A program made the position numbers and the translations under genes. From IMG/VR virus record IMGVR_UViG_3300032288_000917: 23,765 bases of DNA. One strand, given 5' to 3'. The notes beneath the pieces were generated by a model that saw nothing but the letters and a program-made list of their open reading frames with translations, was not told the origin of the DNA and did no database searches. Source of the stretch: an uncultured virus (IMG/VR IMGVR_UViG_3300032288_000917) (lineage: Duplodnaviria > Heunggongvirae > Uroviricota > Caudoviricetes). Numbering within the stretch: position 1 is the first letter of the stretch; each line of letters opens with the position of its first letter. Below, one piece after another: positions 1,756 to 22,790 of the stretch.

Positions 1756-1756
1756 A

Positions 1757-2455
1757 TTATCCTCCCATTAGTAAGAATGGTGAAACTACTGTACTTATTT
1801 CAAAATTAGGTGATGTACCATCTACTATAACATCACCTGTTCTACCTGTAATAGCTACCCCACTTGCAGGACTAGTATTATTTATTGTAATAGATCCTGC
1901 TGCATTAGTTATACTAATATCAGTACCTGCAGTTATAGTAGACAAGGTATAACCTGTACCATTACCTATAAGCACTTGACCATTTGTTGGAGTTGTGCTA
2001 AGGCCAGTACCCCCATTTGCAACTACTAAAGTACCTGCAAGAGTTACTGCACCTGAAGTAGGAGCTGCAGGAGTTAACCCTGTAGTACCACCTGAAAATG
2101 TAGTAACGCCTCCTCCACCTCCTCCAGGACCATTGATCCAGATATTATTTATTGCATCATATGTAAGTACATCTCCAGGTGCAGGAGCTGTAATAGTAAC
2201 ATCTGCTAAATCATCTAAAGTTATAGCTGCTATAAGATTAGTGACATATGCAGTAAGATCTGTTTGGTTAAGAATATCTCCAGATATGTTACCCCAAGTA
2301 AGAGTTATATCTAATCCATCAGAAGTAGCAACTACCTCTTGCTTTTTTAAACGACCGTCTTTCTGTCCTATATATACAGTACCATCCTTGCCAAGATATT
2401 TATAATTAAGCTTAGCAAGTTTATTAGTATGTATGTATGAGATATTATCAGCCAT
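1757..2455 (-). CDS. Tail-fibre-like protein, 232 aa
   Basis: G/T-rich sequence with LDDLADVTITAPAPGDVLTYD, a poly-Gly hinge and GTLVVANGGTG fibre motifs. Confidence 0.65.
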   Translation of the reverse strand: MADNISYIHTNKLAKLNYKYLGKDGTVYIGQKDGRLKKQEVVATSDGLDITLTWGNISGDILNQTDLTAYVTNLIAAITLDDLADVTITAPAPGDVLTYDAINNIWINGPGGGGGGVTTFSGGTTGLTPAAPTSGAVTLAGTLVVANGGTGLSTTPTNGQVLIGNGTGYTLSTITAGTDISITNAAGSITINNTSPASGVAITGRTGDVIVDGTSPNFEISTVVSPFLLMGG

Positions 2456-3171
2456 TAAGTGAAATTCAATGTTACTATATCTAATAAGATATTACCTGCA
2501 GTCACATTGTATATACGTACTTCCTCTTGCATAAAACTTCCTGAGTAGCAACAAGAAAAATTAGCACGTATAGCTATAAAATCATTAGGAGATACATTAG
2601 CAATAATATTGTTTAAGTACTGAAGCTTATAAATAGCACCTCCCCATTGTGGCACACTATTTACACAAAAGAATACTTCAATATTTGTATCAAATAAACC
2701 TACTCTTTCAAACTCTAAATCTATAGGTTTACTCATTCCAATCATTGATTTGAAAGGAGTAATAGCTGTAAAACCTGCTGTTGCAAACCCATAAGCATCA
2801 GGAAAATCTGATGAAGTAGGAGTATCAGTAACTGTAGAAGTAACTATATTATCAAACGTAGCTATTATTGCAGCAGGACTAGCAGATAGGTTAGTTAAAG
2901 TTACAGGCTCTGTTACATCAAAAGGACTAGGACTTATAATCTCTACTCCAAAATTTAAAAAATGATTTGGAGCTACAATTATTTCTATTGTATCAGGCGC
3001 AAGCTTAAAGTCTAGTAAAGTACTTGGAGCTACGTTAGAATCAAAAATTAAAGGTTCAGGAGTTACACGAAAATATAATTGAGTATCTACATTAGCATAC
3101 GATATTTGTATTACAATAGGAGCATCAATTTCTGTAATCCTAGAAGAAGTATATCCGTAAGTAAGAGACAT
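2455..3171 (-). CDS. Repeat-domain adhesin, C-terminal part (about two repeat units), 238 aa; start revised to MSLTYGY
   Basis: ATG at 3171 lies 1 nt after the upstream TGA. Contains the same repeat unit as 3173..6310 (LYFRV, V.PN.F..F, RIYNVTAGNILLD). Confidence 0.7.
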   Translation of the reverse strand: MSLTYGYTSSRITEIDAPIVIQISYANVDTQLYFRVTPEPLIFDSNVAPSTLLDFKLAPDTIEIIVAPNHFLNFGVEIISPSPFDVTEPVTLTNLSASPAAIIATFDNIVTSTVTDTPTSSDFPDAYGFATAGFTAITPFKSMIGMSKPIDLEFERVGLFDTNIEVFFCVNSVPQWGGAIYKLQYLNNIIANVSPNDFIAIRANFSCCYSGSFMQEEVRIYNVTAGNILLDIVTLNFT

Positions 3172-3172
3172 A

Positions 3173-6100: not shown

Positions 6101-6310
6101 GTTTGTAGGGCTTACAAAAGCATACACACGAGCTAAAATATTATTATACTGAATAGTAAGTTTTCCTGTAGCAGGAGCAGGAGTTACTTGCTGAGAAGTA
6201 TAAGTATATAAAGCTGTAGAATCATTTCCTTCAATATCACTCCAGTTAGCAGTAATAGGAGGAGGAGGTACAGGCGCAGACGTCTGTGATAGTATCCCTA
6301 TTTTAAACAT
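3173..6310 (-). CDS. Large T/S/N-rich repeat adhesin or fibre with about 7 tandem ~130-150 aa beta-sandwich-like units, 1045 aa
   Basis: Recurring unit DxTPxxVxW...YTxxQIxGIN...LxYRVS...ITVxNGxYxxF...NxxxxxLLxxF seen several times in the translation. Confidence 0.7.
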   Translation of the reverse strand: MFKIGILSQTSAPVPPPPITANWSDIEGNDSTALYTYTSQQVTPAPATGKLTIQYNNILARVYAFVSPTNFLSSASGTPPSSILIDGVTNMVYVAPGDFILVNDLDYVTFGVEIFSQAVPAQSAIELVTVYDDATFIDSFSVTVNSIASDVTPDAVNWSDITFDPTTNPSITRQYTTQQINGINTLIELSITSSSAEVSTLWYRVSPLAPPTFSSSLVLFDNNSEGFVRWVPGVNITVNNGSYITFTANGPSIGLSTTVFNIRNASNNNVLLDSFTATTLSKLNFSAGWTSVSAQFPAYVGQGFSKTFASQIIPANSLGTSGASITVKNTDVVEADIYYSTTAIGPFNELLDVTTDPNWTLVPFGATGSTFTVFTGTTVSFTTVPVVNAVTNGQFYVYNNSLGGTLVNTVQVSLVQGPDYTPNTVSWGNYSTNQSILDPWIYTSSAQITGINQPITLSANPIPTNPAVFGTNTLVVWYAVTAAPLVAGIDYNAASPAAAQSPPFNVYTGPITVTNGQYVTWFLDWGSYPTNTVSTNINLNINNNTTSTLLANTVITFAAVTSINASFANVNQDQVIPNFTSPSWLYSSNLISGSGGPFTLQIQHNAPSYVQLYYRVSATNTLPPSNNNPTATSPLFIAINSGGTISVAIGQYLQFAVSYTSTTGEVVNFGGYVITVNSVTTNTTLGTFTAFVYPDNNSANAVIASTASINKTPYPNQLGPGIDGYKRAAAIVRLSLKSGTTFNYPFNVYSVINFTGQIQLYYRIYTGTASPAFDPFLDPATVPYYTRLLSGSFTFVNGVLTINNRVLGLDTYFNNASLPADLFIEIVPTSSVYPISATSFSSNGSVKKTYVTPSGVAEQATTCTTQLQNVADVIPNTINFNDIIIGNQVDGKYGFTQVLQVKDVTNTLNWSIETYSSSAGFTVFYKYSLTPFTITSTTHPGNQGFVRIATDNVIPGASIFTPSASYPAFTYPADTLVTTPVQNGMYMAIAIVQDIQLGGSTTLTVNNQSGGNVTLDTFSVTWNTAFAGSDPNPGTTSFNNPTNNY

Positions 6311-6311
6311 G

Positions 6312-6653
6312 TTATGTCAAATCTCCAATAATAGTCCAAGCATTATCAAAAGTCTTAATCATAGTAGCGCCTGTATATTGACTAGCTAAGGTCAAAGCTC
6401 CAGCTTTACTATTTAAGGTAGTACCAGACGCAGCAAATGAAATAGCCCCTGTACTATAATTGATAATGTCAATTTGAGTTCCTACTAAAGTATCTAGTGC
6501 AGGTAAAGTTACTGCACAAGGATTCATAAATACTAAAACTTTACCTGTGTCATCTGAATTCATTATATAAGTAGCTACACTAACTACTTTAATAGTATTT
6601 ATAAATTCTATATGCTCAGGGTAATCTCTTGTTTTAACAGATGAAAGACTCAT
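6312..6653 (-). CDS. Small fibre-associated protein, 113 aa
   Basis: TYxxxxxDxGKxL...VTLP...W.IIGDL pattern recalled from phage fibre modules; 1-nt spacing to neighbours. Confidence 0.6.
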   Translation of the reverse strand: MSLSSVKTRDYPEHIEFINTIKVVSVATYIMNSDDTGKVLVFMNPCAVTLPALDTLVGTQIDIINYSTGAISFAASGTTLNSKAGALTLASQYTGATMIKTFDNAWTIIGDLT

Positions 6654-6654
6654 T

Positions 6655-8199
6655 TTATTTTATAGTATAAATGTTATAATAAACTTTAGTTTTTAGTGTA
6701 CCGTTACCACCCAGTGGTGTTGTAGAGCCAACAGGTGAAGAAAGAGTTACTGCAGTATTATTAGGACTAATAAATAAATTTGTAGAGGCACTAGCGTTTA
6801 AAAATACACTAGAATTTGCACTAAATACACTAGTAGTTTTAAGTGTATCTACAGGAAAAGTAGCTAAAAGTTGGTTACCATAGCGTAATTCATAAGGTAA
6901 CGAAGGATCAGTAAATAGTATGCTACCCTCTTTAAATTCAAAAATTACTTTAAAATCGTAGTATGTATTAGGATTTGATAATTGTGGTAATATTGTTAAA
7001 GGAAAATCTTTCATAATCTCTATGTCACTAGTTAAAAATACACGCTCTCCATAATAATCATAGCCATTAAAATGCACATTATTAGCAATAGTCGTATAAT
7101 CTAGTGCCCCACCTTCTCCTTTTATAACACTATCCCTAAAATCTAAAGAAGTAATTGTAGGAATTAAACGTCTAGTATAAGAAAAAGCACCATCACCACT
7201 AGTACTCCAATTTGTAAATTCTACAGTATAATAGTATCCAGTAGCTTGATCTAACATGACAAGTTCTAAATTATCTGGTATATTAATAACATCATCAGCT
7301 AAAGCTCCCCATAGATTACCATAAACTCTATTTTTAATAGTAGTTAAATTAGACCAACCGTTATAGTTTTCTCGATTATCTGTGTGTCTACTATTCCACA
7401 AAACTCCTATAGGAGAACCAGGAAATTGATAAGGAGGAGGAGGTACGGATGCATAAGTAACTTTAGTTTCTTTATATGCATTGTATAAAAGATCATTATC
7501 AACATTATCTCTTTTTAATGCTGTACCTGGACTAATTATATCTATTGTATCAGGACTATTAGGAGGTCTTACAAAATCAGTTTTAAGAAAAATTTCCCAT
7601 CTATCATAAGCAAAACTTCTGTTTGCTATATTACCTTGCCCCCAATCTTTAAATTTAATTAACCAGTATCTATCGCTAGGAGTATGCTTCATTACAAACT
7701 CTAACTCTTGCATTACCATTGAAGGTGGTACAGACCCCCATCCTGCAGTTTCAAACGAATCTATCCAAATAGCAAAGTCAAAGTTTTTTGCATTTGATAC
7801 TGCTACCCATCCGTAATTAATACCAGAATTTTTACTATAACTACTAATTTCATCTGTAGGCTTTAGTTTAGAAGACCATAAAGTATTTAGAGGACTTACA
7901 CTATAATTATAAACAGATTCTACTGCAATATTTATAAGACCTCCACCACCACTATCAGGTCTAGTAAGTTCTAAAACTCCAGGAATAATAACATCTTTTT
8001 CTAAACCTGTAGCACTTTTTGCAAAAGATACTTTAGGTCCTAATGTGCCTTCTACAAAATCAGATTTAAAAATACCTCCAGCAGCACTCATACTATTTAA
8101 TGAGTCTACTATAGCGTTTAAATGCCCTAATTGAGCTACCTGAGCATCATTAGAAGTTTTAATGTACCTCTCAGCATTTGTTTTTGTAAATTTTTCCAT
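6655..8199 (-). CDS. Putative receptor-binding/virion protein with shared N-terminal anchor and an internally duplicated ~145 aa domain, 514 aa; start revised to MEKFTK
   Basis: ATG at 8199 is 1 nt after the upstream TAA. The N-terminus aligns with that of the 839 aa protein. Two copies of D.I.PG..L.R...L.N...E...SP...LW.S...GW...LE.VM...Y...F..W...F.Y.R. Confidence 0.7.
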   Translation of the reverse strand: MEKFTKTNAERYIKTSNDAQVAQLGHLNAIVDSLNSMSAAGGIFKSDFVEGTLGPKVSFAKSATGLEKDVIIPGVLELTRPDSGGGGLINIAVESVYNYSVSPLNTLWSSKLKPTDEISSYSKNSGINYGWVAVSNAKNFDFAIWIDSFETAGWGSVPPSMVMQELEFVMKHTPSDRYWLIKFKDWGQGNIANRSFAYDRWEIFLKTDFVRPPNSPDTIDIISPGTALKRDNVDNDLLYNAYKETKVTYASVPPPPYQFPGSPIGVLWNSRHTDNRENYNGWSNLTTIKNRVYGNLWGALADDVINIPDNLELVMLDQATGYYYTVEFTNWSTSGDGAFSYTRRLIPTITSLDFRDSVIKGEGGALDYTTIANNVHFNGYDYYGERVFLTSDIEIMKDFPLTILPQLSNPNTYYDFKVIFEFKEGSILFTDPSLPYELRYGNQLLATFPVDTLKTTSVFSANSSVFLNASASTNLFISPNNTAVTLSSPVGSTTPLGGNGTLKTKVYYNIYTIK

Positions 8200-8200
8200 A

Positions 8201-10720
8201 TTATTCTTTTTTCCAAAGGAATGCTGTTGATGACTCAACTAATCTAAATGTAGCAGTTTCTCCAGCTGCTAATGTGTAAGTTCCAGAAACAGTAGCAGCT
8301 GCAATATTAGCACCTAGTCCAGCATCTACTGTAATAGTAGAAGCCCCAGCTCCTACGTCAGAAACAATAAATTTATTTCCTTTTACTACTGCAGTTCTAC
8401 CAGATGAAGAAGGAAAAGGTCCAACTCCAGTAAATGTTTTAGAAACTCTATAAAAACCTGTTCCACCTGTAGCGCCTACTCCAAATGCTACAATTATAGT
8501 TCCTCGTGGAACATTAGCAGCAATTAACTCTTGCCCTAATTGAATAGTACCAGAAGTCATAGCAGTAACATTTATTATATTATAAGCACTATATGCAAAC
8601 GTAAATACAGCAGATGTAGGTAAGTTTACAATAGTAGCTCCAGTCCCAGCAGCACCTACTATAAGATTTACAGGTTTTGTAGTAAGGTTAGTTGTACTTC
8701 CATAGTTTACACTTTGTAATGGAGGTGCGCTAAGTAACACATCACTTTGCATTACAATACCTTCTATAGTCTGACTGTTACCTGTAAAATACAAAGTACT
8801 ATCAACAACTTTAGAATTTTTTATAGCGCAATTAGTAAAGTTATTTAAATAAATAAATCCTCCTTGAATATCAGAACCTGTAAAATCTGTAAATAAGTTT
8901 GCATCTACAGTACCTTTATCAATAAAAGGTACATCTACATAATTAGTATTATTCCAAGATTTAATATAACATTGACTTGTAGTTCCAAATATTACTGGAG
9001 AAAGAGTGTCTACTCTTTCTGGATTATACACTGTATTTATTAATCGTATTTTACCTCCTGATAAAGAAGCAAAAAGATCTTGCCCATCTATATTTTCATC
9101 AGTTCTTTGAATAATACAGTTTATAACAGTAAGCAATCCTCCATTTTCACAATGAAATATACCATCTGTCTTACCAAAAGCAGATCCTGTAGAAACTATA
9201 GTCGTTCCTTCTATAGTGAGGTTTGCATAACCGTTAACTACAATACAATCTGAATCACTTTCTATTCTTTTTATATTAGCGTAAAAAGTACCATCACCAT
9301 ACGTCCAAAAACACCAACCGTCACCAGACTTTAAAAAATTTATATTAAAATAACCTACATCACTTGCTGAACTTTCGTCTACATAAATACATAATCCTTT
9401 GTTAGTAGGTGAGTTATTTAAAATTTTATCTGCAGTCAATGAAATTTTTTGAAAGTATATATAAAAGATAGGACCACTATCAGCATTAAGAGCATCATCT
9501 GCTATAATCTCTGTAACACTAGCAGTAAGTTGAGCATATTGTCCTCCTATACAGCAATTAAATCCAGAAGCTACAGATTTTTTACGAATTAAATTAGCTT
9601 TTACATCTAAAATAGGAACTATCGCTCCAACATAACTTGGTAAAACAGCTGTACCTTGGCTACCATTTAAATATATAACACAGTCTTCTGCTAATATTTG
9701 ATCAGCTACAAACTTTACATTACTAGCTTTTGATAATTTTAAAACTCCTTTTTTAAAACCTCTTTCAGCAAGAGGTAAGGTTAAATCAGTTCTTGTACTA
9801 CCTCTACCTTCAAATGTCCAACCTGGAGCATTGATAAAGCAAGTTACTGATGTAGTAACAGCTGAAGTATCATCAAATAAAGGTTTCTGTACTGCTAATG
9901 CTAATCTTAATAGACCAGTTCCTAAAAAATTAAAGTTAATCCCATCACGTAAAGTCAAACCATCAGGCATTTCATATGTACCAGGAAATACTACTACAGT
10001 ATCTCCAGTTAATGCTGCAGCTAATCCTGCATTAATGGTAAGATAGGGAAGACCTAAGTTATTACGTTGACCTGTAGAATCACTCCCAGTAGGAGAAACA
10101 TATACAGCATTACCTGCTACTACTGAACCTACACCAGCTGGGCCTTGAGGTCCGACAAGTCCTTGTATACCTTGTATACCTTGAGGTCCTTGAGGACCTT
10201 GTAATCCTACAGGACCTTGTACACCTTGTGGCCCAGTATTACCTGTAGCACCTGTTGCTCCAATTGGACCTTGTGGTCCTGTAGCTCCTTGAGCTGCAAG
10301 TAAAGCCCAGTGTACAGTATCTACTGCAGGAGTAGTATTAGCAGGGTTTCCTGCAATAGCTAAAATGCAAAAATAAGATGAGCCGTTATATGCTACTGCA
10401 TCATCAGCTATATAAGAAGTAGCAGGTGCCCAACTACCTTTCCAATCTAAACCTGCAGGACCAATAGGACCCGCAGCACCAGTTGCACCTTGTGGACCAG
10501 TTGGGCCAATAGCTCCAGCAGCTCCAGCAGAACCTGTTGCACCCTGTGCACCAGCAGGACCTTGTGGTCCAGTAGGACCTTGAGGACCAGCTATTCCACC
10601 TTGTTGTGCAATAGTATTTAGTTCCTCAATAACAACATTAAGATTACCTAATTGAGCAATACCCGCATCATCAAAAGTCTGAATGTCTTCTTTGGCTCTG
10701 ACTCTGGTATACTTCTCCAT
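8201..10720 (-). CDS. Collagen-stalked tail spike/fibre with CBM5/12-like insert and pectin-lyase-like beta-helix (putative depolymerase), 839 aa
   Basis: Two Gly-X-Y runs, a [17 protein letters not shown] module, and the beta-helix cap motif VYVSPTGSD...PYLTI...[11 protein letters not shown]. Confidence 0.75.
10127..10597 (-). repeat. Collagen-like (Gly-X-Y) repeats: 16 triplets (10597-10454) and 18 triplets (10288-10127) separated by a ~54 aa globular module
   Basis: Counted directly from the translation. Confidence 0.95.
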
Positions 10721-13140
10721 TATTTATCGTATTTATTCTTGTTAGTTTTGGCAACCTTTAATGCTGTATCAGCTTTCATCTTTTCAATCTTTTCTTTAGA
10801 TTGAATCTCTTTCTCTTTAATGTTCAGCTCTTTAGCTTTAGTAACCTTATCAGCTTGAAGCTTAAGGTTCTCAATAAAGTTCTTAGAGTCAAGCTCTCTT
10901 TGTTTTAAAGCTTGTGCTCCTATTTCAAGAGGATCAGGAATAAGATTCTCATTTACATCAAGATCCATCTGCCTGTTGTAGGTAGCAATCTGTGCAACTT
11001 GAATCTTAGTTTCATTAGTAGTATCAGCAATATACTGCTTAAGCTGCATATCTTCTACATGCATCTGTTGTTGTGCAGCTATCTTCTGCTGTTCAATCTG
11101 AGATACTTGCTCTTGTTGAGCTTGCATCTGCTGCTGCTTATCTTCATAATATTTAGACAGAGTAGCACGAATCTCAGATACTGACTCAGTAGTATATATA
11201 TCTGCAATCTGATGGAAAGCCATTTGGTCATTCTGAAGAGCAAACTTCATATGTTCCTTCATAGCTTGGAATACTTCCATATCTTTGTTCTCATCAGTTA
11301 CAAACACTCCGTAATCTGCATTATTGAACTCCATACCATCAAGCTGGAAAAGTACAGTCTGTAAATCATCAGTAACATACTGAAGGGCTTTACTTTTATC
11401 CTTATAAACATCTTTTGCCACTTCAAGCATAGCTTCACATACGTCAAGCTTAGTCAAAGTGTGCATTCTAAACAGATCTTCTGTTACAAGGCTAGACTGT
11501 GTAATACTTCTTTCAACATTGCCCACGAGCTCTTGATTAGAGATAGCTCCAAGACGCTGTGGAGGTACACCTGCTGTATTTTGGATTTTTCGTTCAATTT
11601 CTTGTAGGAGTTGAATGTTAAACTGAATGTAATTACCCATCTCAAGGTTAAGCTCCTTGTTTTGGGTAGACATATTCTGGTTAATACCCATACGCTTGTT
11701 ACCCTCATTAAGAGAATTAACAAAGCCTATACGCATTGCACGGGCATAATACATCCACTTATCAATTTCCCATCCATCAGGAATCATGGATACATCTACA
11801 AGTGCAATCTTACCCATGTTGGTAGCTAAGGCTAGCTCAGTATCATACCAAAGGATGAAATAAAGGTATACCCAAGGTACAAGCCTATCCATAAGACTAG
11901 TACTTTGAGTATTAGTAGCAGAGCACATACGTCCAAAGTAACCTGACTTACACTTAGACAGGTTATCCATATTCCTGAACTGCTGAGGTCTCCTACGAAT
12001 TGTAGGTTCAATGTACATATCCATACCAATACGTACACCTTCCCAATACTCAGATACCCAATACCATTCTACTCTCTGTTGTGGGTCTTTTTTATCCCAT
12101 TTCCAATCCTCATCTACAGTAAAGCTTTGCTCTTCTCCAGTCTGAGGGTCAATATAATAGAATGTACCTATCTTACGAAAAGACTTCCAGCGTACTCTGT
12201 ACACAGGAATCCTATCAATAAAGCTTTCTTGGTTTTGAAAGTGATAGATAGTCTCAACTTCTTTAATAGTCAAAGGATTGATTACCTGATTACCTGGAAT
12301 ACCACTAGGATAGTAGTTCTCAAGTTCATCAATCTGGTCAGGAGTCAATAATTCATAAAACTCATCAATAATTTGATTGACAGTTAGGTAATTCTCTTCA
12401 AGAATCTGATCACATTCTTCAATAGAATCATTGTTCTCACCAATCTTAAAGAAAAGCTGCAAGGGGTTAACCCTTTTCACAGACACTTCGCCTGCTACTT
12501 CTTCAACTCTATAAAACTCCTCGCCTGCAATCAGCCAGTCCTTCCATCCTGTGGCAAAGACATCTTTTAAACGGAATTTTTTCTTGTAGTACGAAAGAAA
12601 TTTCTCAGCTGTAAGTTCACGCATGTCTTTTGCAGACATCTGCGCTGCTTTAAGAACTTCTTCAGGAGGAGGTTGAGGGTTATTAGGATCTTGTTCCACC
12701 CCTTGCATGAGGTATTGGAACAACGCCTGGACGATAAGTTCTTTAGTTCTTTCCTCTTTTTCAGTGATTGCTGTCTCATTGACTACCCGTACTATAGGAT
12801 TAAAAAATCTCTTATGCTCTTCACCAAAAAGAACATTAAAAATCGGGTATAAGACGTCGTAAGGCTGTAATGTAGCTGGAAGCTGAAACTTGTTAGGCTG
12901 GTTCTTCCCTAAATTAAAAGGATTAGTGATATGCTCAAAGTGAGTAATATCAATCTTATTATTTATAAGATCATAATTCCTCTTTCTCTCTGTAACAGAC
13001 CTTCTCCTTTGAGAATCCTTACCCTTGGTAGAGGCTATAATAGCATCTACACACTTATGTTTCCATTCAAGTGTTTCTTTCACTGAACGGGCAACTTTCT
13101 GCCTGGGTAGTATTACCCTATCTTGATATACAACTTCCAT
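10720..13140 (-). CDS. Portal protein (crAss-like type), 806 aa
   Basis: Immediately downstream of TerL. Size and motifs (WKHKCVD, L.GEE.KR, DWLIAGEE, W.WV.E.WEG.RIG, GVPPQRLG, Q-rich coiled-coil C-terminus) match my recollection of Crassvirales portals. Confidence 0.9.
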   Translation of the reverse strand: MEVVYQDRVILPRQKVARSVKETLEWKHKCVDAIIASTKGKDSQRRRSVTERKRNYDLINNKIDITHFEHITNPFNLGKNQPNKFQLPATLQPYDVLYPIFNVLFGEEHKRFFNPIVRVVNETAITEKEERTKELIVQALFQYLMQGVEQDPNNPQPPPEEVLKAAQMSAKDMRELTAEKFLSYYKKKFRLKDVFATGWKDWLIAGEEFYRVEEVAGEVSVKRVNPLQLFFKIGENNDSIEECDQILEENYLTVNQIIDEFYELLTPDQIDELENYYPSGIPGNQVINPLTIKEVETIYHFQNQESFIDRIPVYRVRWKSFRKIGTFYYIDPQTGEEQSFTVDEDWKWDKKDPQQRVEWYWVSEYWEGVRIGMDMYIEPTIRRRPQQFRNMDNLSKCKSGYFGRMCSATNTQSTSLMDRLVPWVYLYFILWYDTELALATNMGKIALVDVSMIPDGWEIDKWMYYARAMRIGFVNSLNEGNKRMGINQNMSTQNKELNLEMGNYIQFNIQLLQEIERKIQNTAGVPPQRLGAISNQELVGNVERSITQSSLVTEDLFRMHTLTKLDVCEAMLEVAKDVYKDKSKALQYVTDDLQTVLFQLDGMEFNNADYGVFVTDENKDMEVFQAMKEHMKFALQNDQMAFHQIADIYTTESVSEIRATLSKYYEDKQQQMQAQQEQVSQIEQQKIAAQQQMHVEDMQLKQYIADTTNETKIQVAQIATYNRQMDLDVNENLIPDPLEIGAQALKQRELDSKNFIENLKLQADKVTKAKELNIKEKEIQSKEKIEKMKADTALKVAKTNKNKYDK

Positions 13141-13163
13141 GAAGCTCTAATTAACCCAATTTA

Positions 13164-13195
13164 CAAAAGTACTTTTTTAAGTATGGATTAACCAA
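13164..13195 (-). promoter_or_regulatory. Bacteroidota housekeeping-type promoter for the portal/fibre operon
   Basis: Minus strand TTG (13195-13193), N21, TACTTTTG (13171-13164) in the 59-nt TerL-portal gap; matches TAnnTTTG. Confidence 0.6.
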
Positions 13196-13199
13196 TAGT

Positions 13200-15275
13200 T
13201 TACATGAAAAATTGTCCCTTCCCTATAGCAATTTTTTTATTTGAGGTAATACCATTGTGGAAAAATTCATGGTCCAAGAAGGTTTTTACCTTCTCTTCTA
13301 CCTGTACTTCATACTTACGCATCTCTTCCTTTTGATAAAGTGCTAGCATTAAAGCCATTACACGGTCAAAGTTACCATCAGGATTATATAAAATCAACTC
13401 TTTAAGCAAAGGTACGCATCTAATCTTATGTGAAACCTTAACATCACCCTCATATGTTCTTCTAAGCCAGCTGTTAATCAACCCTTCGCCATACCTTTTG
13501 ATTTCCATAGGCATGTGCATACCATAACCTCTGTCTACAGTACTAGATGCTACTACATCTTTTACCAGTTTAGGTTGCTTAGCAAGTAAATAAAGGGCTC
13601 CACATGACTCAAAGTAGGTAAACACACCTTTTTTCTCATTTTCATACAAGGCCAAAGCATTATAGTAAACAAGTAATCTTCTACAATTCTCATAAAAGTC
13701 ATTTGCCGTCTCAGGCCTTCCGCTATATTCAGCTACTATTCTATTTGTCAGATTATCTAGCAGGATGATAGAACCCAAAGACCCAGAATTAGACTTATCA
13801 TGGTCATAAGGGTCAATACCTGCGATGTAACGTCCCCAAGGTATATGGCCTTCATCAGACTTAATTGGATGTTCATATATAACAACTGAGCCTTCTGTAT
13901 TAGCTTCTGCTTTAAGTGGGAAATCATATATAGGTCTGTTTTTAGCATTATTCCTCCACTCAACTTCTCCCTCAGGTGTAATAGCTATATCTCCTACCCA
14001 GTCTGCATCTGCAAGTTTAGTAGTCTCAATATGTGCAAGAGTATATTGTAGATCTTTAAGAGGGAATATATTATTAGTCTTAGAAAGAAATACCTCACTA
14101 GGTACAATCGGATTATACACTACATACTCATCATATGCAGACGCATCCTTAGCAAGCTTCTTCTTCTCTCTCTGATCTTCTTCTCCAGCTTTAGCTAATG
14201 AAAAGTTCGTATTACCAAACTCATCCTTATAATTAATCTTGGTATAAGTAGCAGGAAAGAATAAAGCTATCTTTCCTCTGTTCTCATAAATATCCTCAAA
14301 TACCAGACAATCATACGCCTCTGGGTCGTAGAACATCTTTTGAGCTGCGAGGGTGCCACCGCCAACCATGTCACCACCAGTACCAATATACAAAGTGGAA
14401 CCAAATTTATAATTATTAAGGCGTTGAGTATTTTCGTCAGCAAAGTGTGACTCAATAAGATTTTCCCAAAGACCAATTTCTTCTCCTATTTTAACTGTAT
14501 TACGACCACCCACACCTGCAAGTGGTTTATCCTTGTAAACCCTAGGCTTAAAGCAACTTCTGGTACCTACCATTTGCCATTTACCACCTACCTTTTTCTT
14601 GTAGTAGTTCTCTGCTTTCTTACCAATAGCCCAAGTTCCTGCCAAAGTCTTAAGAAATGGTGCTGGATAGTATACACCATTGACTTCCATACCACCAGGA
14701 TAATTATTAAGTACGTCTTGAATCTTTGTAATAAGGTCATTAACATAAGGCGAGTTATAAGCAGACAATAAAATCTCTGCAGTTTCTTTTGGTACCTCTC
14801 CAGGAGTATACTCTTTCTGCCCGTCTGTCAAATACTCATGAGCTGCTACATTAGCTCCCCAATAAGACTTACCCCAACCACGAGGACCCAAGACAAGCAA
14901 ATTCTGAGCCTCATTATTATACAAAGGTTTACCTAAATCTTCTTTCTGCTTCTGCCTAAGGAAAGACCTAATATCATCTACATCTCCTACCTTCTCAAAG
15001 CCAGACAATCCTCTAGCTTCAATCCAATAGTAAGCTAAGTCCCAAACATAATCTAGATCCCAAGGCCTATCCTTCTTTCTACTTTTCTTGTCTCCAAGAA
15101 CTATAGTAGCATAGTTAATGTAATGATATAACTGGGGAGGGCACCATACTCCATTTATCCAAACACCTTCAATAACCTTCTTTTTTTCAGACCTCCAGAA
15201 ATCCAGATAGCCCTGACTAAGAGGGTGCAGTTTAGGTACAGATGGTAATGCAAATGCCTTCCTATTGTCCCACAT
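13200..15275 (-). CDS. terL: Terminase large subunit, 691 aa
   Basis: Walker A-like GPRGWGKS, Walker B-like KIGEEIG, YIGTGG motif, RNase H-like nuclease YIAGIDPYD...YENE...NFDRVMA; adjacent to the portal. Confidence 0.95.
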   Translation of the reverse strand: MWDNRKAFALPSVPKLHPLSQGYLDFWRSEKKKVIEGVWINGVWCPPQLYHYINYATIVLGDKKSRKKDRPWDLDYVWDLAYYWIEARGLSGFEKVGDVDDIRSFLRQKQKEDLGKPLYNNEAQNLLVLGPRGWGKSYWGANVAAHEYLTDGQKEYTPGEVPKETAEILLSAYNSPYVNDLITKIQDVLNNYPGGMEVNGVYYPAPFLKTLAGTWAIGKKAENYYKKKVGGKWQMVGTRSCFKPRVYKDKPLAGVGGRNTVKIGEEIGLWENLIESHFADENTQRLNNYKFGSTLYIGTGGDMVGGGTLAAQKMFYDPEAYDCLVFEDIYENRGKIALFFPATYTKINYKDEFGNTNFSLAKAGEEDQREKKKLAKDASAYDEYVVYNPIVPSEVFLSKTNNIFPLKDLQYTLAHIETTKLADADWVGDIAITPEGEVEWRNNAKNRPIYDFPLKAEANTEGSVVIYEHPIKSDEGHIPWGRYIAGIDPYDHDKSNSGSLGSIILLDNLTNRIVAEYSGRPETANDFYENCRRLLVYYNALALYENEKKGVFTYFESCGALYLLAKQPKLVKDVVASSTVDRGYGMHMPMEIKRYGEGLINSWLRRTYEGDVKVSHKIRCVPLLKELILYNPDGNFDRVMALMLALYQKEEMRKYEVQVEEKVKTFLDHEFFHNGITSNKKIAIGKGQFFM

Positions 15276-15799
15276 TATATCTCTCCTTTTTCAGTAAGAC
15301 TTTCCATAGCTCCACCAAGCATAGTACCTGCTTCACCATCTTGTACAAGTCTTGACATAATCTCTTCATATTCTGCATATAGCTTAGAGTTAGACAAAAG
15401 CCTTTTCTCAATCTCATCAGCAGTCTCTGCAGAATACTTTAAAGTCTTCATGTACTCAGTCTTTTCATTCATAAGCCTTTCCCATTCAGACATCTGCTTC
15501 ATAGGTACAGACTTGTACCTTTCCCAGTCCTTAATATACTTATCAAGCTGAGACCAGTCAAAAGATTCCTCCTTCAACACATCTTCAGCTATAAGCTTCT
15601 TTCTTTCAGGTTCAGATAAAGGCCTATACTTAGACTCAAAGTCAGCATAAAAAGCCACTGCCCACATAAGTTTGCTAGAGTGGGATTTATTCTTAGACTT
15701 GTCCTCTATATAAAGCTTATTATACAGGGCAGGGGCTTTAAGCTGTGGATTTACTTCCCAAAAGTTTGCTAGTAAATCCCATGAATCTATTACTTTCAT
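15275..15799 (-). CDS. Helical phage protein, putative terminase small subunit (positional call), 174 aa
   Basis: Coupled (TAATG) directly upstream of terL; helical, charged composition. Function inferred from position only. Confidence 0.5.
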   Translation of the reverse strand: MKVIDSWDLLANFWEVNPQLKAPALYNKLYIEDKSKNKSHSSKLMWAVAFYADFESKYRPLSEPERKKLIAEDVLKEESFDWSQLDKYIKDWERYKSVPMKQMSEWERLMNEKTEYMKTLKYSAETADEIEKRLLSNSKLYAEYEEIMSRLVQDGEAGTMLGGAMESLTEKGEI

Positions 15800-16026
15800 C
15801 TTAGAGTAAGATCTTCTTTAGGTTCAGGTAAACCATTAGTACGTACAAGAATATAATCAAAGTTTAAAGCTTTAATCTTCTTAACAGCTCTCCTAAGATT
15901 TACATCACTAGCATATCCTTTATCAGAATATGCTATGACATTGTTCTTCCTACCTAATAGTCTCCAGAACCATAGTTTACTACTCATACTTTGAAAGTAA
16001 TACAAAGTATAACCTTTCTTAACCAT
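15796..16026 (-). CDS. YegP/DUF1508-like small protein, 76 aa
   Basis: WFWRLLGRKNNVIAYSDKGYASDVNLRRAVKKIK resembles the DUF1508 pattern W.WRL...N..IIA.SE.Y.......AI..VK. Confidence 0.65.
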   Translation of the reverse strand: MVKKGYTLYYFQSMSSKLWFWRLLGRKNNVIAYSDKGYASDVNLRRAVKKIKALNFDYILVRTNGLPEPKEDLTLR

Positions 16027-16027
16027 T

Positions 16028-16459
16028 TTATTGTAAGTTTTCCAGCTTGTAAATAGTAGTATAGAACAGAGCTACAATCTCATCTACTTGATTCTGTACA
16101 TAAGTCTCAGAACAAATAGCTTTACGCTCAGTCTCTACATAGCTAAGACACTTCTTTACATAAGTAAGTGCGTTACCTACATTACTATCTACAGAATGAG
16201 AATAATCATACTTCAGGATTCCATACTTACCCTGAATAGATTCTGCGAGAGCATCCACCATGTCAGGCAAAGCATCATAAAGACCACCAAGTGCCATATG
16301 CATAGCAAAAGCACCTGCACCTTTTGTGCACAAATGATAAACATGGACTTGCATACTGCAGCCCAATAAATAAGAAATAAATTCACCTTCTTTAGAAGAT
16401 TTAGACCCCATAGATTTGGGAGGTTTTGGTAGGTTCATAATATTATAAGCGTTAGCCAT
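16028..16459 (-). CDS. Ferritin/Dps-like four-helix protein (phage DUF5856-like), 143 aa
   Basis: HVYHL...H.AL..LYD......D.LAE..QG and C-terminal N..DEI......T.YKL metal-ligand pattern. Confidence 0.8.
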   Translation of the reverse strand: MANAYNIMNLPKPPKSMGSKSSKEGEFISYLLGCSMQVHVYHLCTKGAGAFAMHMALGGLYDALPDMVDALAESIQGKYGILKYDYSHSVDSNVGNALTYVKKCLSYVETERKAICSETYVQNQVDEIVALFYTTIYKLENLQ

Positions 16460-16460
16460 T

Positions 16461-16838
16461 TTAGTTTAAAATAGATTTAGCACTGTCTTTAATAGCTTGC
16501 TTGTACTCCAACTCATCCTTAATGTAATTCATATCTACTTTCATGAGTACATCAAAGTCACGAATAAGAGCAAACTTCCTATTATACATTTTAAAAATAT
16601 CTACGTTCATTGGACGCAAAGAAACCCAGTCACCAATTTCTATGCCCTGTACTTTATCTCCTGTACTAATAACAGGGTGAGCAATAGATTTAGTTTCTTC
16701 AGAACTAACAGGTAGAAAAATCCCACCTGAGGTCTTAAGGTTCTCTACAAATTCAATAAGCATATGGTCACTCATAGGAGTAAAGTGCTTACGCATTTTT
16801 TCGTGGATTTCCACGGTTACTTGATCTTGGTTTGACAT
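16461..16838 (-). CDS. groES: GroES/Cpn10-like co-chaperonin, ~125 aa (start uncertain: 16838 preferred, 16892 possible)
   Basis: PMSDHMLIE...KTSGGIFLP mobile loop, VISTG...IEIGDWV, LIRDFDVL. Confidence 0.85.
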   Translation of the reverse strand: MSNQDQVTVEIHEKMRKHFTPMSDHMLIEFVENLKTSGGIFLPVSSEETKSIAHPVISTGDKVQGIEIGDWVSLRPMNVDIFKMYNRKFALIRDFDVLMKVDMNYIKDELEYKQAIKDSAKSILN

Positions 16839-17184
16839 TATTTTTAGGTTTTGTTTTACACTTTTTAACTTTTGGCTTAGAGACCCTACCATAGAACCTC
16901 TGTTTAAAGCCTGTCACTCTTATAGTACCATCCATCTTTAAATGAACCATTTCATCATAAGGCTCCTGTAATACCATCCAGCCTATATCTTCATGAAATA
17001 TCCTACATCTTGAAAGATCAATAATACCCTTATCTGTAAAAAAATTATCTACTAGCTTGACGTCAGACAAATGCATTACAGTAACACCTTTCACATTCCT
17101 GCGAATGATTTTATCCTTCTCTCCAGTAAGATGCGTAATGTACCTTACCTGAATAGTCCCACCACCTAGTTTTACAATGGCCAT
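16789..17184 (-). CDS. Hypothetical protein with Lys-rich C-terminal tail, 131 aa
   Basis: ORF in operon position, overlapping both neighbours; no recognised family. Confidence 0.65.
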   Translation of the reverse strand: MAIVKLGGGTIQVRYITHLTGEKDKIIRRNVKGVTVMHLSDVKLVDNFFTDKGIIDLSRCRIFHEDIGWMVLQEPYDEMVHLKMDGTIRVTGFKQRFYGRVSKPKVKKCKTKPKNNVKPRSSNRGNPRKNA

Positions 17185-17420
17185 TTGTCTTTAGGGCATT
17201 TACCGTTTTGAGTCCTAGCCTTAGCTTCCAATACACATCCACAATCTCTACACCTACTACCTAAATTAACATTAGGTTTAGTAGTATTAGATACACAATC
17301 CTTACATACCATCAGCCTCTTCAAAGCCTTCTCCTCTATCTCCTGATCCCTTACTATCAGGTTGCTCCACCCTTCCACTATATCTGGAAAGCTGTTGAAC
17401 ATATCTTTCAGTGTTGACAT
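17172..17420 (-). CDS. Cys-rich metal-binding protein (DUF6171-like), 82 aa
   Basis: RL.VC..C...C..CGC....K......CP..KW motif. Confidence 0.75.
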   Translation of the reverse strand: MSTLKDMFNSFPDIVEGWSNLIVRDQEIEEKALKRLMVCKDCVSNTTKPNVNLGSRCRDCGCVLEAKARTQNGKCPKDKWPL

Positions 17421-17607
17421 ACTTTAACTTTCTTAACGGTACAACAAATTTTCCCATTTTAGGAACCATAATATTATGCCCCTTTTCTTCACGCATAGTA
17501 CTTACAATCATCTCAAAGACAGACCTAAACGCCAGTTCTACATCCTTTTTAGAAATTCCTGATTTCCTAGCCACATCCTCATATACTTCCTTCAGCTCTA
17601 ACTTCAT
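17302..17607 (-). CDS. HU/IHF-like DNA-binding protein, 101 aa
   Basis: VARKSGISKKDVE...FEMIVSTM...IMVPKMGKF matches the HU/IHF fold signature; ATGA overlap with the upstream gene. Confidence 0.8.
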   Translation of the reverse strand: MKLELKEVYEDVARKSGISKKDVELAFRSVFEMIVSTMREEKGHNIMVPKMGKFVVPLRKLKYVNTERYVQQLSRYSGRVEQPDSKGSGDRGEGFEEADGM

Positions 17608-17954
17608 TTCTCAAACTCAAATGCTACAAATAACCTAAACTTTCCATCCTTAGGATAATTAGTCAGCTTAGGGTTTAACCCATTAGGCTCTATAAGTCCC
17701 TTATCTTTTAATCCTTGCAGCAACTTCTCAAATAACCTAGCATTAATCTTCATCTTCTTACGAATAGCCTCCAAAGTGTTCTTTGAAAGTAAGTATTCCT
17801 CTAGCACATGAGTAGGATAATCCTTATGTGCAAAGTGCAAAGTCAATAAAGCAGCTAGTATATCAATCTCTCCCTTACTAAGATGTAGTACAGGATTTAG
17901 CCAATTTAAATAAGTCACAAAGAACTTATTTCTAGGCGTTTTGATAGTTATCAT
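17604..17954 (-). CDS. Winged-helix-like phage protein, 116 aa; probably leaderless
   Basis: LSKGEIDILAALL...IRKKMKI....FEKLLQGLKDKGLI resembles MarR-type wHTH; ATG is 4 nt from the promoter -7 box. Confidence 0.6.
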   Translation of the reverse strand: MITIKTPRNKFFVTYLNWLNPVLHLSKGEIDILAALLTLHFAHKDYPTHVLEEYLLSKNTLEAIRKKMKINARLFEKLLQGLKDKGLIEPNGLNPKLTNYPKDGKFRLFVAFEFEK

Positions 17955-17958
17955 GCAC

Positions 17959-17990
17959 CAAATATAAAGGACTTCCTACATTAAAACAAA
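17959..17990 (-). promoter_or_regulatory. Consensus Bacteroidota promoter for the late/packaging operon
   Basis: TTTG (17990-17987), N20, TATATTTG (17966-17959). Confidence 0.85.
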
Positions 17991-18021
17991 AGAAAAAGCC
18001 CAACTCATTGAGAGTCAGGCT
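17987..18021 (-). terminator. Intrinsic terminator ending the non-coding transcript
   Basis: Minus strand AGCCTGACTC-TCAAT-GAGTTGGGCT (10 bp with 2 G-U) followed by TTTTCTTTTG. Confidence 0.8.
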
Positions 18022-18413
18022 AATTCTTGGGTTGATGAGTATCTTTAGAACCTAATCTATAAGCAACACCTTTGTCCTAAATTAGAAAAATCTACCTTTT
18101 CTAACTTTATTATTTTTGCACACTTATGCCCTTGGGATTTTCATCCTTTAAGCACTTGCGTGCATCATTTTACTGTCTTTCCTTCAAGTCGTCTGAGCCT
18201 TTCAGCTTTTACCGTTATACTGGAGGCATCTCTATCAACCCTTAGCCTTTAACCCAGTCAAGAAGCGTATGAACAGTAAGGGTTTTTCACTTGTATTCCA
18301 AGGTTTATTACCCCCAAGAGAGTCTGCCTTTGTACTCCAAGTGTGCAGGAGTAGGTCTAACAGACGAGTCTTGTATTAAAAAGTAGCTTACGGGCTACTT
18401 TTGCATGACATGC
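17990..18413 (-). ncRNA. Candidate ~420-nt structured non-coding RNA, family not recognised
   Basis: Own consensus promoter and terminator, no sense ORF of 60 aa or more, many nested helices and GNRA-capped hairpins (see findings). Confidence 0.65.
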
Positions 18414-18417
18414 GGGG

Positions 18418-18449
18418 CAAATATAATACTCATTTTTACAAACACCAAA
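18418..18449 (-). promoter_or_regulatory. Consensus Bacteroidota promoter driving the candidate ncRNA
   Basis: TTTG (18449-18446), N20, TATATTTG (18425-18418). Confidence 0.85.
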
Positions 18450-18465
18450 AAAATGTAAAAAAAAG

Positions 18466-18675
18466 TTATGGGGCTATAGCATTTTTAACCCTATCCAAAC
18501 TAGGATTGTGGCAAAACCTCAACTTCTTATTAGATATAGTCCATATCTCCCCATTATCCAAAGCACAGGTAAACAGCAAATCATGCTCCTGACTATAATC
18601 TATCACTAAAAAAGCATACCCCTCCATTTTATGCTCAATAGAATAAATAGGTATCATAGGATTTAATTGTAGCAT
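18466..18675 (-). CDS. Small phage protein, 69 aa; start revised to MLQLNP
   Basis: MLQLNP.IP...G.A..VIDY..E.DL......GE.W...N..LR...N pattern recalled from phage hypotheticals; ATG is 3 nt from a TATATTTG box. Confidence 0.7.
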   Translation of the reverse strand: MLQLNPMIPIYSIEHKMEGYAFLVIDYSQEHDLLFTCALDNGEIWTISNKKLRFCHNPSLDRVKNAIAP

Positions 18676-18678
18676 ATA

Positions 18679-18686
18679 CAAATATA
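18679..18686 (-). promoter_or_regulatory. Bacteroidota -7 promoter box (no clear -33)
   Basis: TATATTTG with an A-rich upstream tract, immediately before the ATG at 18675. Confidence 0.6.
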
Positions 18687-18788
18687 AATTTTTTTTATTT
18701 TTTATGGGAATTAGAGAGTTACCCACCCCACCAAAGGGCACCCCTTCCTTATAATAGCGGAATATATCCCCCGCATAAAACTATCCAA

Positions 18789-19052
18789 ATGGAAAAAGAA
18801 CTTGAATTGTTAACCTTAGCAGAAATTAAGGAAGCATTAGGTGCATCTGAATTGCGTGTTGTAGATTCTAACAATACGGATGACAATGGTGAAGCACTAC
18901 GTAGCACTGTGTACCACGGATCTACCAAGTTAGGCTTAGTAAAGAAAGGATTACTTGCTAAAGACCTAAAGGATAACCAAGACTATGTAGTTGCAGTCAA
19001 GAATCCTGAACTTGGTTGGGTATTTACTATTAGGAAAGGGGAGATTATCTAA
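18789..19052 (+). CDS. Hypothetical protein, 87 aa; first gene of the rightward arm
   Basis: ORF with A-rich leader, followed by a terminator. Confidence 0.75.
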   Translation: MEKELELLTLAEIKEALGASELRVVDSNNTDDNGEALRSTVYHGSTKLGLVKKGLLAKDLKDNQDYVVAVKNPELGWVFTIRKGEII

Positions 19053-19066
19053 TCCCCTTTTCTTTC
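19034..19066 (+). terminator. Intrinsic terminator overlapping the stop codon
   Basis: AAAGGGGA / TCCCCTTT stem followed by a pyrimidine run. Confidence 0.7.
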
Positions 19067-19130
19067 TTCCCTTGTCTACACCATACTACACACTACACGT
19101 TACTTATTGTGTATAGCATTATACCTAAAA

Positions 19131-19302
19131 AACTCAATCTCTTCCCAAAGGATAGCAGATGTAATAGAGTATATATTAGGGTTGGGATATAAAGAGTTAT
19201 GCCTCCAACATCTATTATACATCTGAGTGCAGAGGGATTACATCAGGACTTTATCTATTGGACTTCACACAATAGAAGCTTTACGGTGAGGCTTAAACCG
19301 TT
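19131..19302 (+). ncRNA. Candidate structured RNA element
   Basis: Intergenic; several 5-8 bp helices, two of them mutually exclusive (see findings). Confidence 0.4.
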
Positions 19303-19361
19303 CTATTAGATTTTACTCAATACCATTAATATAGCATTCTCACTAAAATCCCACAAACATC

Positions 19362-19523
19362 ATGTCAAACTCAAGCAAAGCAGTTCTATCAATGTTAATG
19401 GCATTAATCTGTAGTTTCTTTTTCTTTAGTGCATTAGAATTAGAGATATACATAGTAGCATTAGTATTCTGTCTTATGATGGGAGGCTTTGCTATGGTAG
19501 GCTTACATTACGATCGTAAGTAA
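19362..19523 (+). CDS. Small two-TM membrane protein, 53 aa (MSNSSKAVLSMLMALICSFFFFSALELEIYIVALVFCLMMGGFAMVGLHYDRK)
   Basis: Translated by hand; AC-rich leader like neighbouring genes; two hydrophobic segments. Below the ORF-track cutoff. Confidence 0.65.
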   Translation: MSNSSKAVLSMLMALICSFFFFSALELEIYIVALVFCLMMGGFAMVGLHYDRK

Positions 19524-19529
19524 TAGTAA

Positions 19530-19604
19530 GGTCCTGTAGGTAAACGGATATACCAGTTGCCTTCTAAGCATCTATTCTACGTTCGATTCGTAGCAGGACC
19601 ACCA
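19530..19604 (+). tRNA. trnR: tRNA-Arg(UCU), CCA encoded
   Basis: Acceptor GGTCCTG/CAGGACC-A-CCA, anticodon loop CT-TCT-AA, T arm CTACG-TTCGATT-CGTAG. Confidence 0.92.
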
Positions 19605-22711: not shown

Positions 22712-22785
22712 GGGCCTTTAGCTCAGTAGGTTAGAGCGACAGACTCATAATCTGTATGTCGTAGGTTCAATCCCTACAGGGCCCA
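22712..22785 (+). tRNA. tRNA with CAU anticodon, probably Ile2 (lysidine, reads AUA) rather than Met; no encoded CCA
   Basis: Acceptor GGGCCTT/AGGGCCC-A with C4-G69 and C5-G68 (TilS determinants); ACAGA-CTCATAA-TCTGT; paired 1-72 excludes initiator tRNA. Confidence 0.88.
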
Positions 22786-22790
22786 CTATT

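Follow-up and report, generated by a model that had tools for sequence, protein, structure and literature searches.

What is encoded by the stretch without open reading frames (ORFs) that lies among the packaging genes of an uncultured crAss-like phage? The question is raised by positions 17987-18449 of a 23,765-nucleotide stretch, here called the window, of the IMG/VR virus record IMGVR_UViG_3300032288_000917 (23,969 bases, estimated to be 27% complete). A first-pass annotation, made from the letters of the window, had read this gap as a stand-alone structured non-coding RNA (ncRNA) gene of unrecognised family upstream of a wHTH-HU-GroES-TerL array (TerL, large terminase), and the proposal is borne out by covariation among homologues, by the lack of a match in Rfam and by the same-strand position of the element in four phage lineages. 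Packaging, virion cargo, protein sponging and anti-defence had been put forward there as candidate roles. Here it is proposed, with a probability of roughly 0.9, that the locus is a real structured ncRNA gene of a new, uncatalogued family. As to its mechanism, the odds are put at about even or slightly below that the RNA acts in trans, as a folded molecule that binds a conserved partner.

The homologues were collected from three sources: relatives of the gene for a 116-aa protein downstream of the RNA, an invariant core pattern and a degenerate pattern. Twelve IMG/VR loci came from the relatives of the 116-aa gene; 11 have the RNA, and in the remaining one (L013) the contig stops short of the place where it would lie. 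Exact scans with the core pattern returned 17 IMG/VR stretches and 16 metagenome stretches, and the degenerate pattern added one lineage. After removal of duplicates, ~26 distinct sequences are available in four lineages: lineage A, the window's clade, including the divergent L008/L009/L041 and L011/L012; lineage B, with G003 and G004 (TerL 85% and 84% identical to the window's); lineage C, with G001, G002 and L046 (TerL 33% identical); and lineage D, with G005 (TerL 35% identical). G003 is a complete 87-kb genome (87.3 kb) with direct terminal repeats. With a covariance model of the RNA (R1), G000-G004 each show a single copy, and G005 shows a divergent one. By TerL, Cellulophaga phage phi14:2 (Crassvirales) is the nearest cultured relative found (34% identity).

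The structure was set by hand on MAFFT alignments not fitted to structure and guided by per-sequence folds, because helices were misaligned between clades when RNAalifold was run on the raw MAFFT alignment, which recovered only 16 pairs. Three alignments were used, covering the core (A3, 22 sequences and 30 pairs), the 5' domain (A5, 20 sequences and 34 pairs) and the pseudoknot (A2, 23 sequences). Each sequence folded alone gives the same architecture, and the conserved fold takes up only the first ~296 nt (18413-18118) of the ~420-nt predicted RNA. In the core, 87.8% of the alignment cells are paired, compared with 31-56% when the strands are slid against each other, and both sides change in 16 of the 30 pairs (81 cells); in 500 shuffles, neither this percentage nor the cell count nor the covariation score was ever attained. 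The 5' domain behaves in the same way, with 87.9% of cells paired against 37-51% on sliding and 24 of 34 pairs changing on both sides (83 cells). Model-fitted alignments yield similar pairing and covariation numbers, and the four lineages differ in almost every helix. Covariation among homologues, which the first-pass annotation had named as a check, is thus strong on the core, on the 5' domain and on the pseudoknot described below.

Within the 5' domain, P1 has five of its eight pairs changing on both sides and 98.5% of cells paired, and reads GAGGUC-CCGUAA-GGCCUC in L011. All three tiers of P2 vary in a compensatory manner (P2a in 4 of 5 pairs, P2b in 6 of 7 and P2c in 5 of 6), as do all four pairs of the P3 tip, where every cell is paired. 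At the P3 base, 76.5% paired on the fixed alignment, compensatory changes are lacking, but the L008 clade preserves it as AUGG/CCAU. An extra hairpin, P0, stands in some homologues between the 5'-terminal mini-hairpin and P1. The P7 stem and loop, the junction strand J6/8 AUAACGGUAAA and the junction strand J8/5 CAGACGA hardly vary, and are therefore uninformative for or against pairing. The P7 loop, UAAGGGUUGAUAGAGAU, forms the most conserved 17 nt of the element; it is invariant in lineages B and C as well as in most of A, and can still be recognised in L008, L011 and L084. GNRA tetraloops close P8 and P9 in many members.

The apical loop of P2 pairs with the strand that directly follows P9, forming an 8-bp pseudoknot that ties the 5' domain to the 3' tail. 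On A2, 97.7% of its 128 cells are paired, compared with 19-56% when the partner is slid, and three of the eight pairs are compensatory, with variants such as CACUA/UAGUG (L032, L038) and CGCAC/GUGCG (L018, L023), together with CACCU/AGGUG in L011 and L012, outside A2. For the L008 clade (3 of 20 sequences) a per-sequence search gave no convincing pseudoknot duplex; on the A2 columns this clade has a weak CUA/UAG match, flanked by wobble pairs and with one mismatch. In G003 (L018/L052) the motif UAAGUG of the 3' pseudoknot strand occurs three times in the 3' region, ~60-150 nt past that strand, and is absent there in L014; these repeats could allow alternative pairing with the P2 loop.

The fold drawn in the first-pass annotation was a multibranch domain, and it survives in part. 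The helices UACUCC/GGAGUA (now P2c), AGC-UGAAAG-GCU (P8) and GGAU-GAAA-AUCC (the tip of P9) stand, whereas its three long-range helices, 18373-18361/18195-18185, AGGCA..CUCU/AGAG.UGCCU and AACCCUUA/UAAGGGUU, were rejected, as they show no covariation and their strands belong to other, covarying helices. On A2, these three are 77.1% paired, compared with 75.6% in shuffles, and only 3 of their 28 pairs change on both sides, a number reached by 334 of 500 shuffles. They appear to fit the window since each takes an invariant core segment as one of its strands, and the chance resemblance of the P2 3' strand (CAGACUCUCUUG) to J8/5-P5 (CAGACGACUUG) adds to this apparent fit. Two further hairpins of that annotation were likewise not retained: GCAC-GCAA-GUGC appears in the minimum-energy fold of the window's own sequence alone among those folded, and the 8-bp hairpin at 18104-18082 falls in the non-conserved spacer. 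Per-sequence folds of most homologues give at P9 an outer 4-bp stem with a variable inner hairpin, in place of which the window's own minimum-energy fold has two separate hairpins.

The signals around the fold are those expected for a transcription unit on the minus strand, as had been claimed from the window, where a consensus-matching promoter, a stretch free of ORFs, an intrinsic terminator and a separate promoter for the next gene were all present (Table 1). TTTG / TAnnTTTG is the consensus of Bacteroidota promoters. Full TTTG-N17-23-TAnnTTTG matches occur only twice in the window, at 18449-18418 and 17990-17959, a count within chance, as at least two matches were found in 35 of 100 shuffles; the -7 box of the RNA promoter is aligned and conserved in most homologues. 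The RNA is predicted to start near 18413, ~5 nt past this box. No minus-strand ORF of at least 20 aa lies between 18449 and 18003, and in the alignments the indels among homologues do not come in threes, which marks the region as non-coding. The terminator hairpin (18021-17997) is ranked first of 10 terminator-like sites in positions 1-19500, where shuffles give 9.0 sites. In G001 (lineage C), inspection by eye shows the core together with a TAnnTTTG box and with a hairpin that runs into U7; another consensus promoter directly follows this terminator, a layout that supports a self-contained unit. The strand is indicated by the fold as well: against shuffles, the minus strand has z = -3.97 and the plus strand z = -1.69, and the core helices contain 26 G-U cells and a single A-C cell. 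The G-U excess, together with the promoter, the terminator and the GNRA loops, points to the minus strand and to an RNA, not to a signal in duplex DNA.

Table 1. Features of the RNA locus and its neighbourhood, given in positions of the window; P, paired element; J, junction strand
Feature	Position	Strand	Remarks
RNA promoter	18414-18449	minus	-33 TTTG 18449-18446, 20-nt spacer, -7 box TATATTTG 18425-18418
5'-terminal mini-hairpin GCAUGUCAUGC	18403-18413	minus	GCA/UGC; CAC/GUG in clade B (alignments)
P1 hairpin AAAGUAGC/GCUACUUU	18380-18401	minus	conserved hexaloop CCGUAA; CUGUAA in one subclade
P2 three-tier hairpin	18315-18373	minus	CAAGA/UCUUG, GUCUGUU/GGCAGAC, UACUCC/GGAGUA; per-sequence folds agree
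Pseudoknot 5' strand GCACACUU	18339-18346	minus	P2 apical loop; pairs with 18125-18118 (8 bp)
P3 hairpin	18280-18314	minus	GGGG/CCCC base, conserved internal loop, 4-bp tip, pentaloop RAAUA
Universal three-way-junction core (P4-P8)	18170-18279	minus	~120 nt
P4	18279-18272 with 18177-18170	minus	
P5	18265-18259 with 18188-18182	minus	CUUC-UU-G/C-UU-GAAG
P6	18258-18254 with 18223-18219	minus	ACUGG/CCAGU
P7	18248-18224	minus	17-nt loop UAAGGGUUGAUAGAGAU at 18228-18244
J6/8	18218-18208	minus	AUAACGGUAAA
P8	18207-18196	minus	
J8/5	18195-18189	minus	CAGACGA
P9 two-tier hairpin	18126-18155	minus	GCUU/GGGC outer stem, GGAU-GAAA-AUCC tip
Pseudoknot 3' strand AAGUGUGC	18118-18125	minus	just after P9
A/U-rich spacer	18022-18117	minus	poorly conserved; includes hairpin 18104-18082
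Intrinsic-terminator-like hairpin and U-run	17987-18021	minus	hairpin 18021-17997, then T-run
Promoter of 116-aa gene	17952-17990	minus	TTTG-N20-TATATTTG; pattern match 17990-17959; ATG 4 nt past -7 box
116-aa protein gene	17604-17954	minus	no known family; next gene after the RNA
GroES-like protein gene	16461-16892		
TerL gene	13200-15275	minus	
Portal gene	10720-13140	minus	
tRNA gene Arg-TCT	19530-19604	plus	divergently transcribed region
tRNA gene Met-CAT	22712-22786	plus	divergently transcribed region
tRNA gene Leu-TAA	22791-22876	plus	divergently transcribed region

The part of the fold common to all lineages is smaller than the fold of the window. Lineages C and D lack P1-P3 and the pseudoknot, and a second model (R2) finds no 5' domain there; lineage D has other peripheral hairpins. 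Both keep P4-P8 with compensatory changes, established partly by eye, with P5 as UAUUG/CAAUA in C and UUUGAG/CUCAAA in D, and P4 as CUUAUU/GGUAAG in C and AGUUCUUUA/UAAAGAAU in D. Because only P4-P8 are kept in these two lineages, the functional unit is taken to be the ~120-nt three-way junction with the invariant loop, and the 5' domain with its pseudoknot looks like a clamp added in lineages A and B. In 19 of 21 distinct sequences P5 has two conserved U-U mismatches, for which the L008 clade alone has U-A and G-C; they may form a specific metal- or protein-binding site.

According to the mechanism proposed here, the host RNA polymerase would start ~5 nt past the Bacteroidota-type -7 box and stop at the intrinsic terminator, giving an RNA of ~420 nt. 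Its first ~296 nt would fold compactly, with P1-P3 tied to the 3' tail by the pseudoknot and the ~120-nt three-way-junction core, with the invariant 17-nt loop and the junction strands, held between the 5' hairpins and P9 with the tail. The RNA would be made together with the late and packaging genes and act in trans, the invariant loop and junction serving as the binding surface for a conserved partner, which could be a protein or complex of the host or a small ligand. That this partner hardly changes is suggested by a core identity of about 90% between phages with TerL proteins only 33% identical. A near-invariant core of ~120 nt beside a terminase at 33% identity is the signature of an RNA in contact with something highly conserved, and the 120-nt core and the 296-nt full fold are small, concrete targets for structure work and pull-downs. 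The RNA may also bear on late-gene control in crAss-like phages.

Several observations weigh against a self-contained, trans-acting RNA. In G003 (lineage B), scanning the interval from the RNA to the next gene turns up no terminator, and by eye neither a usual terminator nor a TAnnTTTG box precedes the next ORF in G005, nor any obvious promoter the two ORFs that follow the RNA in L011 and L012, so that in these phages the RNA is possibly the 5' leader of an operon. The constant same-strand position 3-8 kb upstream of TerL also fits a role in cis; gene order is in general conserved in phages. The sequences are few and related, so their covarying cells are not independent events and the counts overstate such events, and one sequence, L035, breaks P4. 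The main rival reading, possible but rather doubtful, makes the RNA a cis-acting leader of the late/packaging operon, which would either render its own polymerase resistant to termination or offer a platform to a phage antiterminator; transcripts begun at 18413 would pass the terminator at 18021-17987 and continue into the ~18-kb operon. The HK022 put RNA (about 70 nt) and the Bacillus EAR RNA are cis-acting RNAs of processive antitermination, and the lambda PR'-6S-tR' unit is a platform for a phage antiterminator. The arrangement is analogous, in that a promoter-proximal structured RNA followed by a terminator stands at the head of a long late operon with terminase genes: in the window the RNA lies on the operon strand between the promoter at 18449-18418 and the terminator at 18021-17987, directly upstream of the operon, and it has the same orientation to TerL in G001-G005, upstream of the TerL-containing array in all four lineages. 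The missing terminator of G003 speaks for such a leader too, as does the lack of a clear terminator or promoter in G005 and before the inserted ORFs of L011. On the other side, the operon has no need of read-through in the window and in G001, where another consensus promoter follows the terminator directly, the operon has no other convincing intrinsic terminators to be overcome (10 sites against 9.0 expected, with that of the RNA ranked first), and the RNA matches neither put nor EAR by sequence or model, belongs to no Rfam family and is far larger than put. The narrower version, in which the RNA is a protein-independent modifier of RNA polymerase, similar to put and EAR in action and unrelated to them, that licenses transcription of the whole late/packaging operon, is considered unlikely; if true, it would be the first RNA-based late-transcription control in Crassvirales.

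Improbable, in turn, is a ribozyme or ligand-binding aptamer with the invariant junction and loop as active site or pocket, for example for self-processing of the transcript or for sequestering a small signalling molecule. The compact pseudoknotted fold, the GNRA tetraloops on P8/P9 of many members and the near-invariant unpaired nucleotides of the three-way junction would suit it, giving the element a general resemblance to catalytic and ligand-binding RNAs, but no ribozyme or riboswitch of Rfam 15 matches, with E allowed up to 10. The fold ends at 18118 without overlapping an expression platform, and 96 non-conserved bases follow before the terminator begins at 18021; the downstream gene has its own promoter, and no class of downstream gene is common to the lineages, in which these genes differ, as a hint to a ligand. 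A packaging or virion RNA, acting as a motor part like the phi29 pRNA or packed in the capsid bound by the HU-like protein, is favoured by the adjoining HU-like, GroES-like and TerL genes, a possible packaging link that it shares with the pRNA as a phage ncRNA. It is nevertheless held to be very improbable: no pRNA model matches, the immediate neighbours differ between lineages, and the RNA does not co-occur with the packaging motor in phi14:2, whose whole record has no R1 match at E up to 1, nor in 50,697 GenBank phage records, which gave no blastn match. An RNA essential to the motor would be expected to be more widespread. Readings of the locus other than as an RNA gene, namely a DNA-level signal (a pac site or origin), a small protein gene or the template RNA of a reverse transcriptase (RT), are largely excluded. 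They would account for an ORF-poor conserved region near terminase genes. Against them, the compensatory changes include many G-U pairs, which are A-C on the other strand, the RNA strand has no ORF of at least 20 aa, and in G003 the element maps to ~69.1 kb of the 87.3-kb genome, at neither end and clear of the terminal repeats. As for the RT, PF00078 (RVT_1) is found in none of the five records G000-G004, including the complete G003, in a search that matched control genomes, and a link of the RNA to an RT was rejected.

The comparison with known RNAs supports the novelty of the family. When the whole window was searched against Rfam 15, only three tRNAs reached gathering scores, and the RNA region has no family match. 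At E up to 10, positions 17700-18800 give eight weak matches, the best being Thr_leader on the terminator hairpin, with 23.1 bits against a gathering score of 55. The 12 homologous loci, searched at E up to 5, give seven scattered weak matches, none near its gathering score; those that recur are Thr_leader (two loci) and suhB (two loci), at 20.9-22.2 bits against gathering scores of 55 and 41, most of them outside the core. ARAGORN detects no tRNA or tmRNA in 17987-18449 and only three tRNAs in the window. In the literature searched, no structured RNA of such a kind is described for crAss-like phages. More than 10,000 IMG/VR candidate RNAs have been catalogued (PMC10690425); the contig identifiers are absent from those tables of the catalogue that are readable as text, and it may hold the RNA unnamed.

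The RNA family is new, and an orphan structured phage RNA as such has precedents. To our knowledge, large, well-supported structured RNAs are few in phage genomes. Among them are GOLLD and ROOL, large ornate RNAs found in phages and prophages and both covered by Rfam models. Like the RNA of the window, they are phage-borne, reach several hundred nucleotides, fold into many helices with a pseudoknot and have transcription signals of their own; tRNA genes lie near them, as in the window (the nearest at 1.1 kb), and no function is known for either. The RNA of the window differs in matching no Rfam 15 model, in its smaller size (a core of ~120 nt and a conserved part of ~296 nt) and in its host range, as it occurs in crAss-like phages with Bacteroidota-type promoters.

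Two further groups of RNAs come from Bacteroidota or their phages. The UG27 ncRNAs of gut phages are described (PMC9226505; bioRxiv 10.64898/2026.09.22.753630) as arrays of short hairpin units beside an RT, and are, like the present RNA, structured ncRNAs of Bacteroidota-infecting phages; the RNA of the window is instead single-copy and has no RT in its five records, one of them complete. A PhoH2-associated multistem RNA of Bacteroidota, of ~357 nt (bioRxiv 10.64898/2026.10.21.760802), is similar in size and belongs to the phylum inferred here for the hosts, and in lineage C a PhoH gene lies 2.9 kb downstream of the RNA, in a 219-aa frame whose match covers the PhoH family only. The complete G003 has the RNA without PhoH, so an obligatory link with PhoH was rejected; the two RNAs are compared by description only.

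Additional roles were considered for the conserved loops. As a putative antisense seed, the invariant 17-nt loop lacks a target in the window, where complementary sites are absent even with three mismatches allowed. The P1 loop CCGUAA (18386-18391) and the junction UAUAACGGU (18210-18218) spell both halves of helix 69 of 23S rRNA (E. coli GGCCGUAACUAUAACGGUCC). Mimicry of this helix was discarded, as the 9-mer match to E. coli rrlH shares its E of 4.9 with eight further chance 9-mers, and UAUGACGG stands there in most homologues.

The family is rare and so far appears confined to a few environmental crAss-like (Crassvirales-type) phages, with totals of about 20 IMG/VR contigs and 15 metagenome contigs in the collections scanned; given this rarity, its general importance is uncertain. 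The exact core pattern has no match in 185,579 prokaryote species genomes (one each), and the degenerate pattern matched 12 genomes of unrelated phyla, in three of which R1 saw the bare pattern only; one more R1 match, full-length but weak (L061, 19.3 bits, E 0.014), was taken as chance. A looser pattern gave 59 IMG/VR stretches, and none of the 39 from new contigs passed R1 (E up to 0.1) beyond the bare pattern.

The host of the phage is inferred to be a member of the Bacteroidota from the TerL kinship with phi14:2 and from the promoter type. The genes of the window form a long array on the minus strand, the operon running down to position 119, and the RNA sits in every lineage in a gap of this array, on the TerL strand and 3-8 kb upstream of TerL (~8 kb in G001/G002 and 5.4 kb in G005). 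The small genes upstream of portal and TerL encode the GroES-like, HU-like and 116-aa proteins. The immediate neighbours of the RNA vary by lineage, being the 116-aa protein in A and B, a ClpP-like protein, followed by PhoH and GroEL, in C, and an unannotated 142-aa protein in D. The 116-aa protein has no relative in lineage D, and its only, weak relative in lineage C (E 0.001) is encoded 3.5 kb further downstream. Of the five other records searched, G004 alone has the small gene upstream of the RNA. The RNA thus has no fixed protein partner encoded beside it. A GroEL-like protein is encoded upstream of TerL in lineage C (L051/G001 13005-14489), and likewise in phi14:2, and the window has its GroES-like gene; phage chaperonin genes are recurrent in the TerL-proximal gene block.

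In lineage A the terminator and its flanks (17987-18030; ACCCAAGAAUURGCCUGACUCUCAAUGAGUUGGGCYUUUUCUUU) are near-identical, even in L008 with its diverged RNA and in L011-L013 with two genes inserted ahead of the terminator. This conservation exceeds what a terminator needs, so the region may also be a binding site. The inserted ORFs, found between the RNA and the conserved terminator in L011 (1361-2909), L012 and L013, encode proteins of 105-109 aa and of 403-414 aa, the latter with weak matches to fibronectin type III (FN3). The idea that an FN3-domain gene had replaced the RNA in L011-L013 proved wrong, as R1 and direct reading show a divergent, complete copy upstream of the two ORFs. On the 2,069-base metagenome contig L035, the copy is of lineage B type in its 5' half and of lineage A type in its 3' half; P4 is broken, and 23 of the 30 core pairs form. 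Either natural recombination or chimeric assembly produced it.

The -7 boxes TATATTTG of the 116-aa gene (17952-17966) and of the small upstream gene (18670-18686) are followed by an ATG only 3-4 nt later, which suggests leaderless or nearly leaderless mRNAs for both genes. The upstream ORF had been listed with a GTG start and 91 aa (18466-18741); its true start is more likely the ATG at 18672, giving 68 aa.

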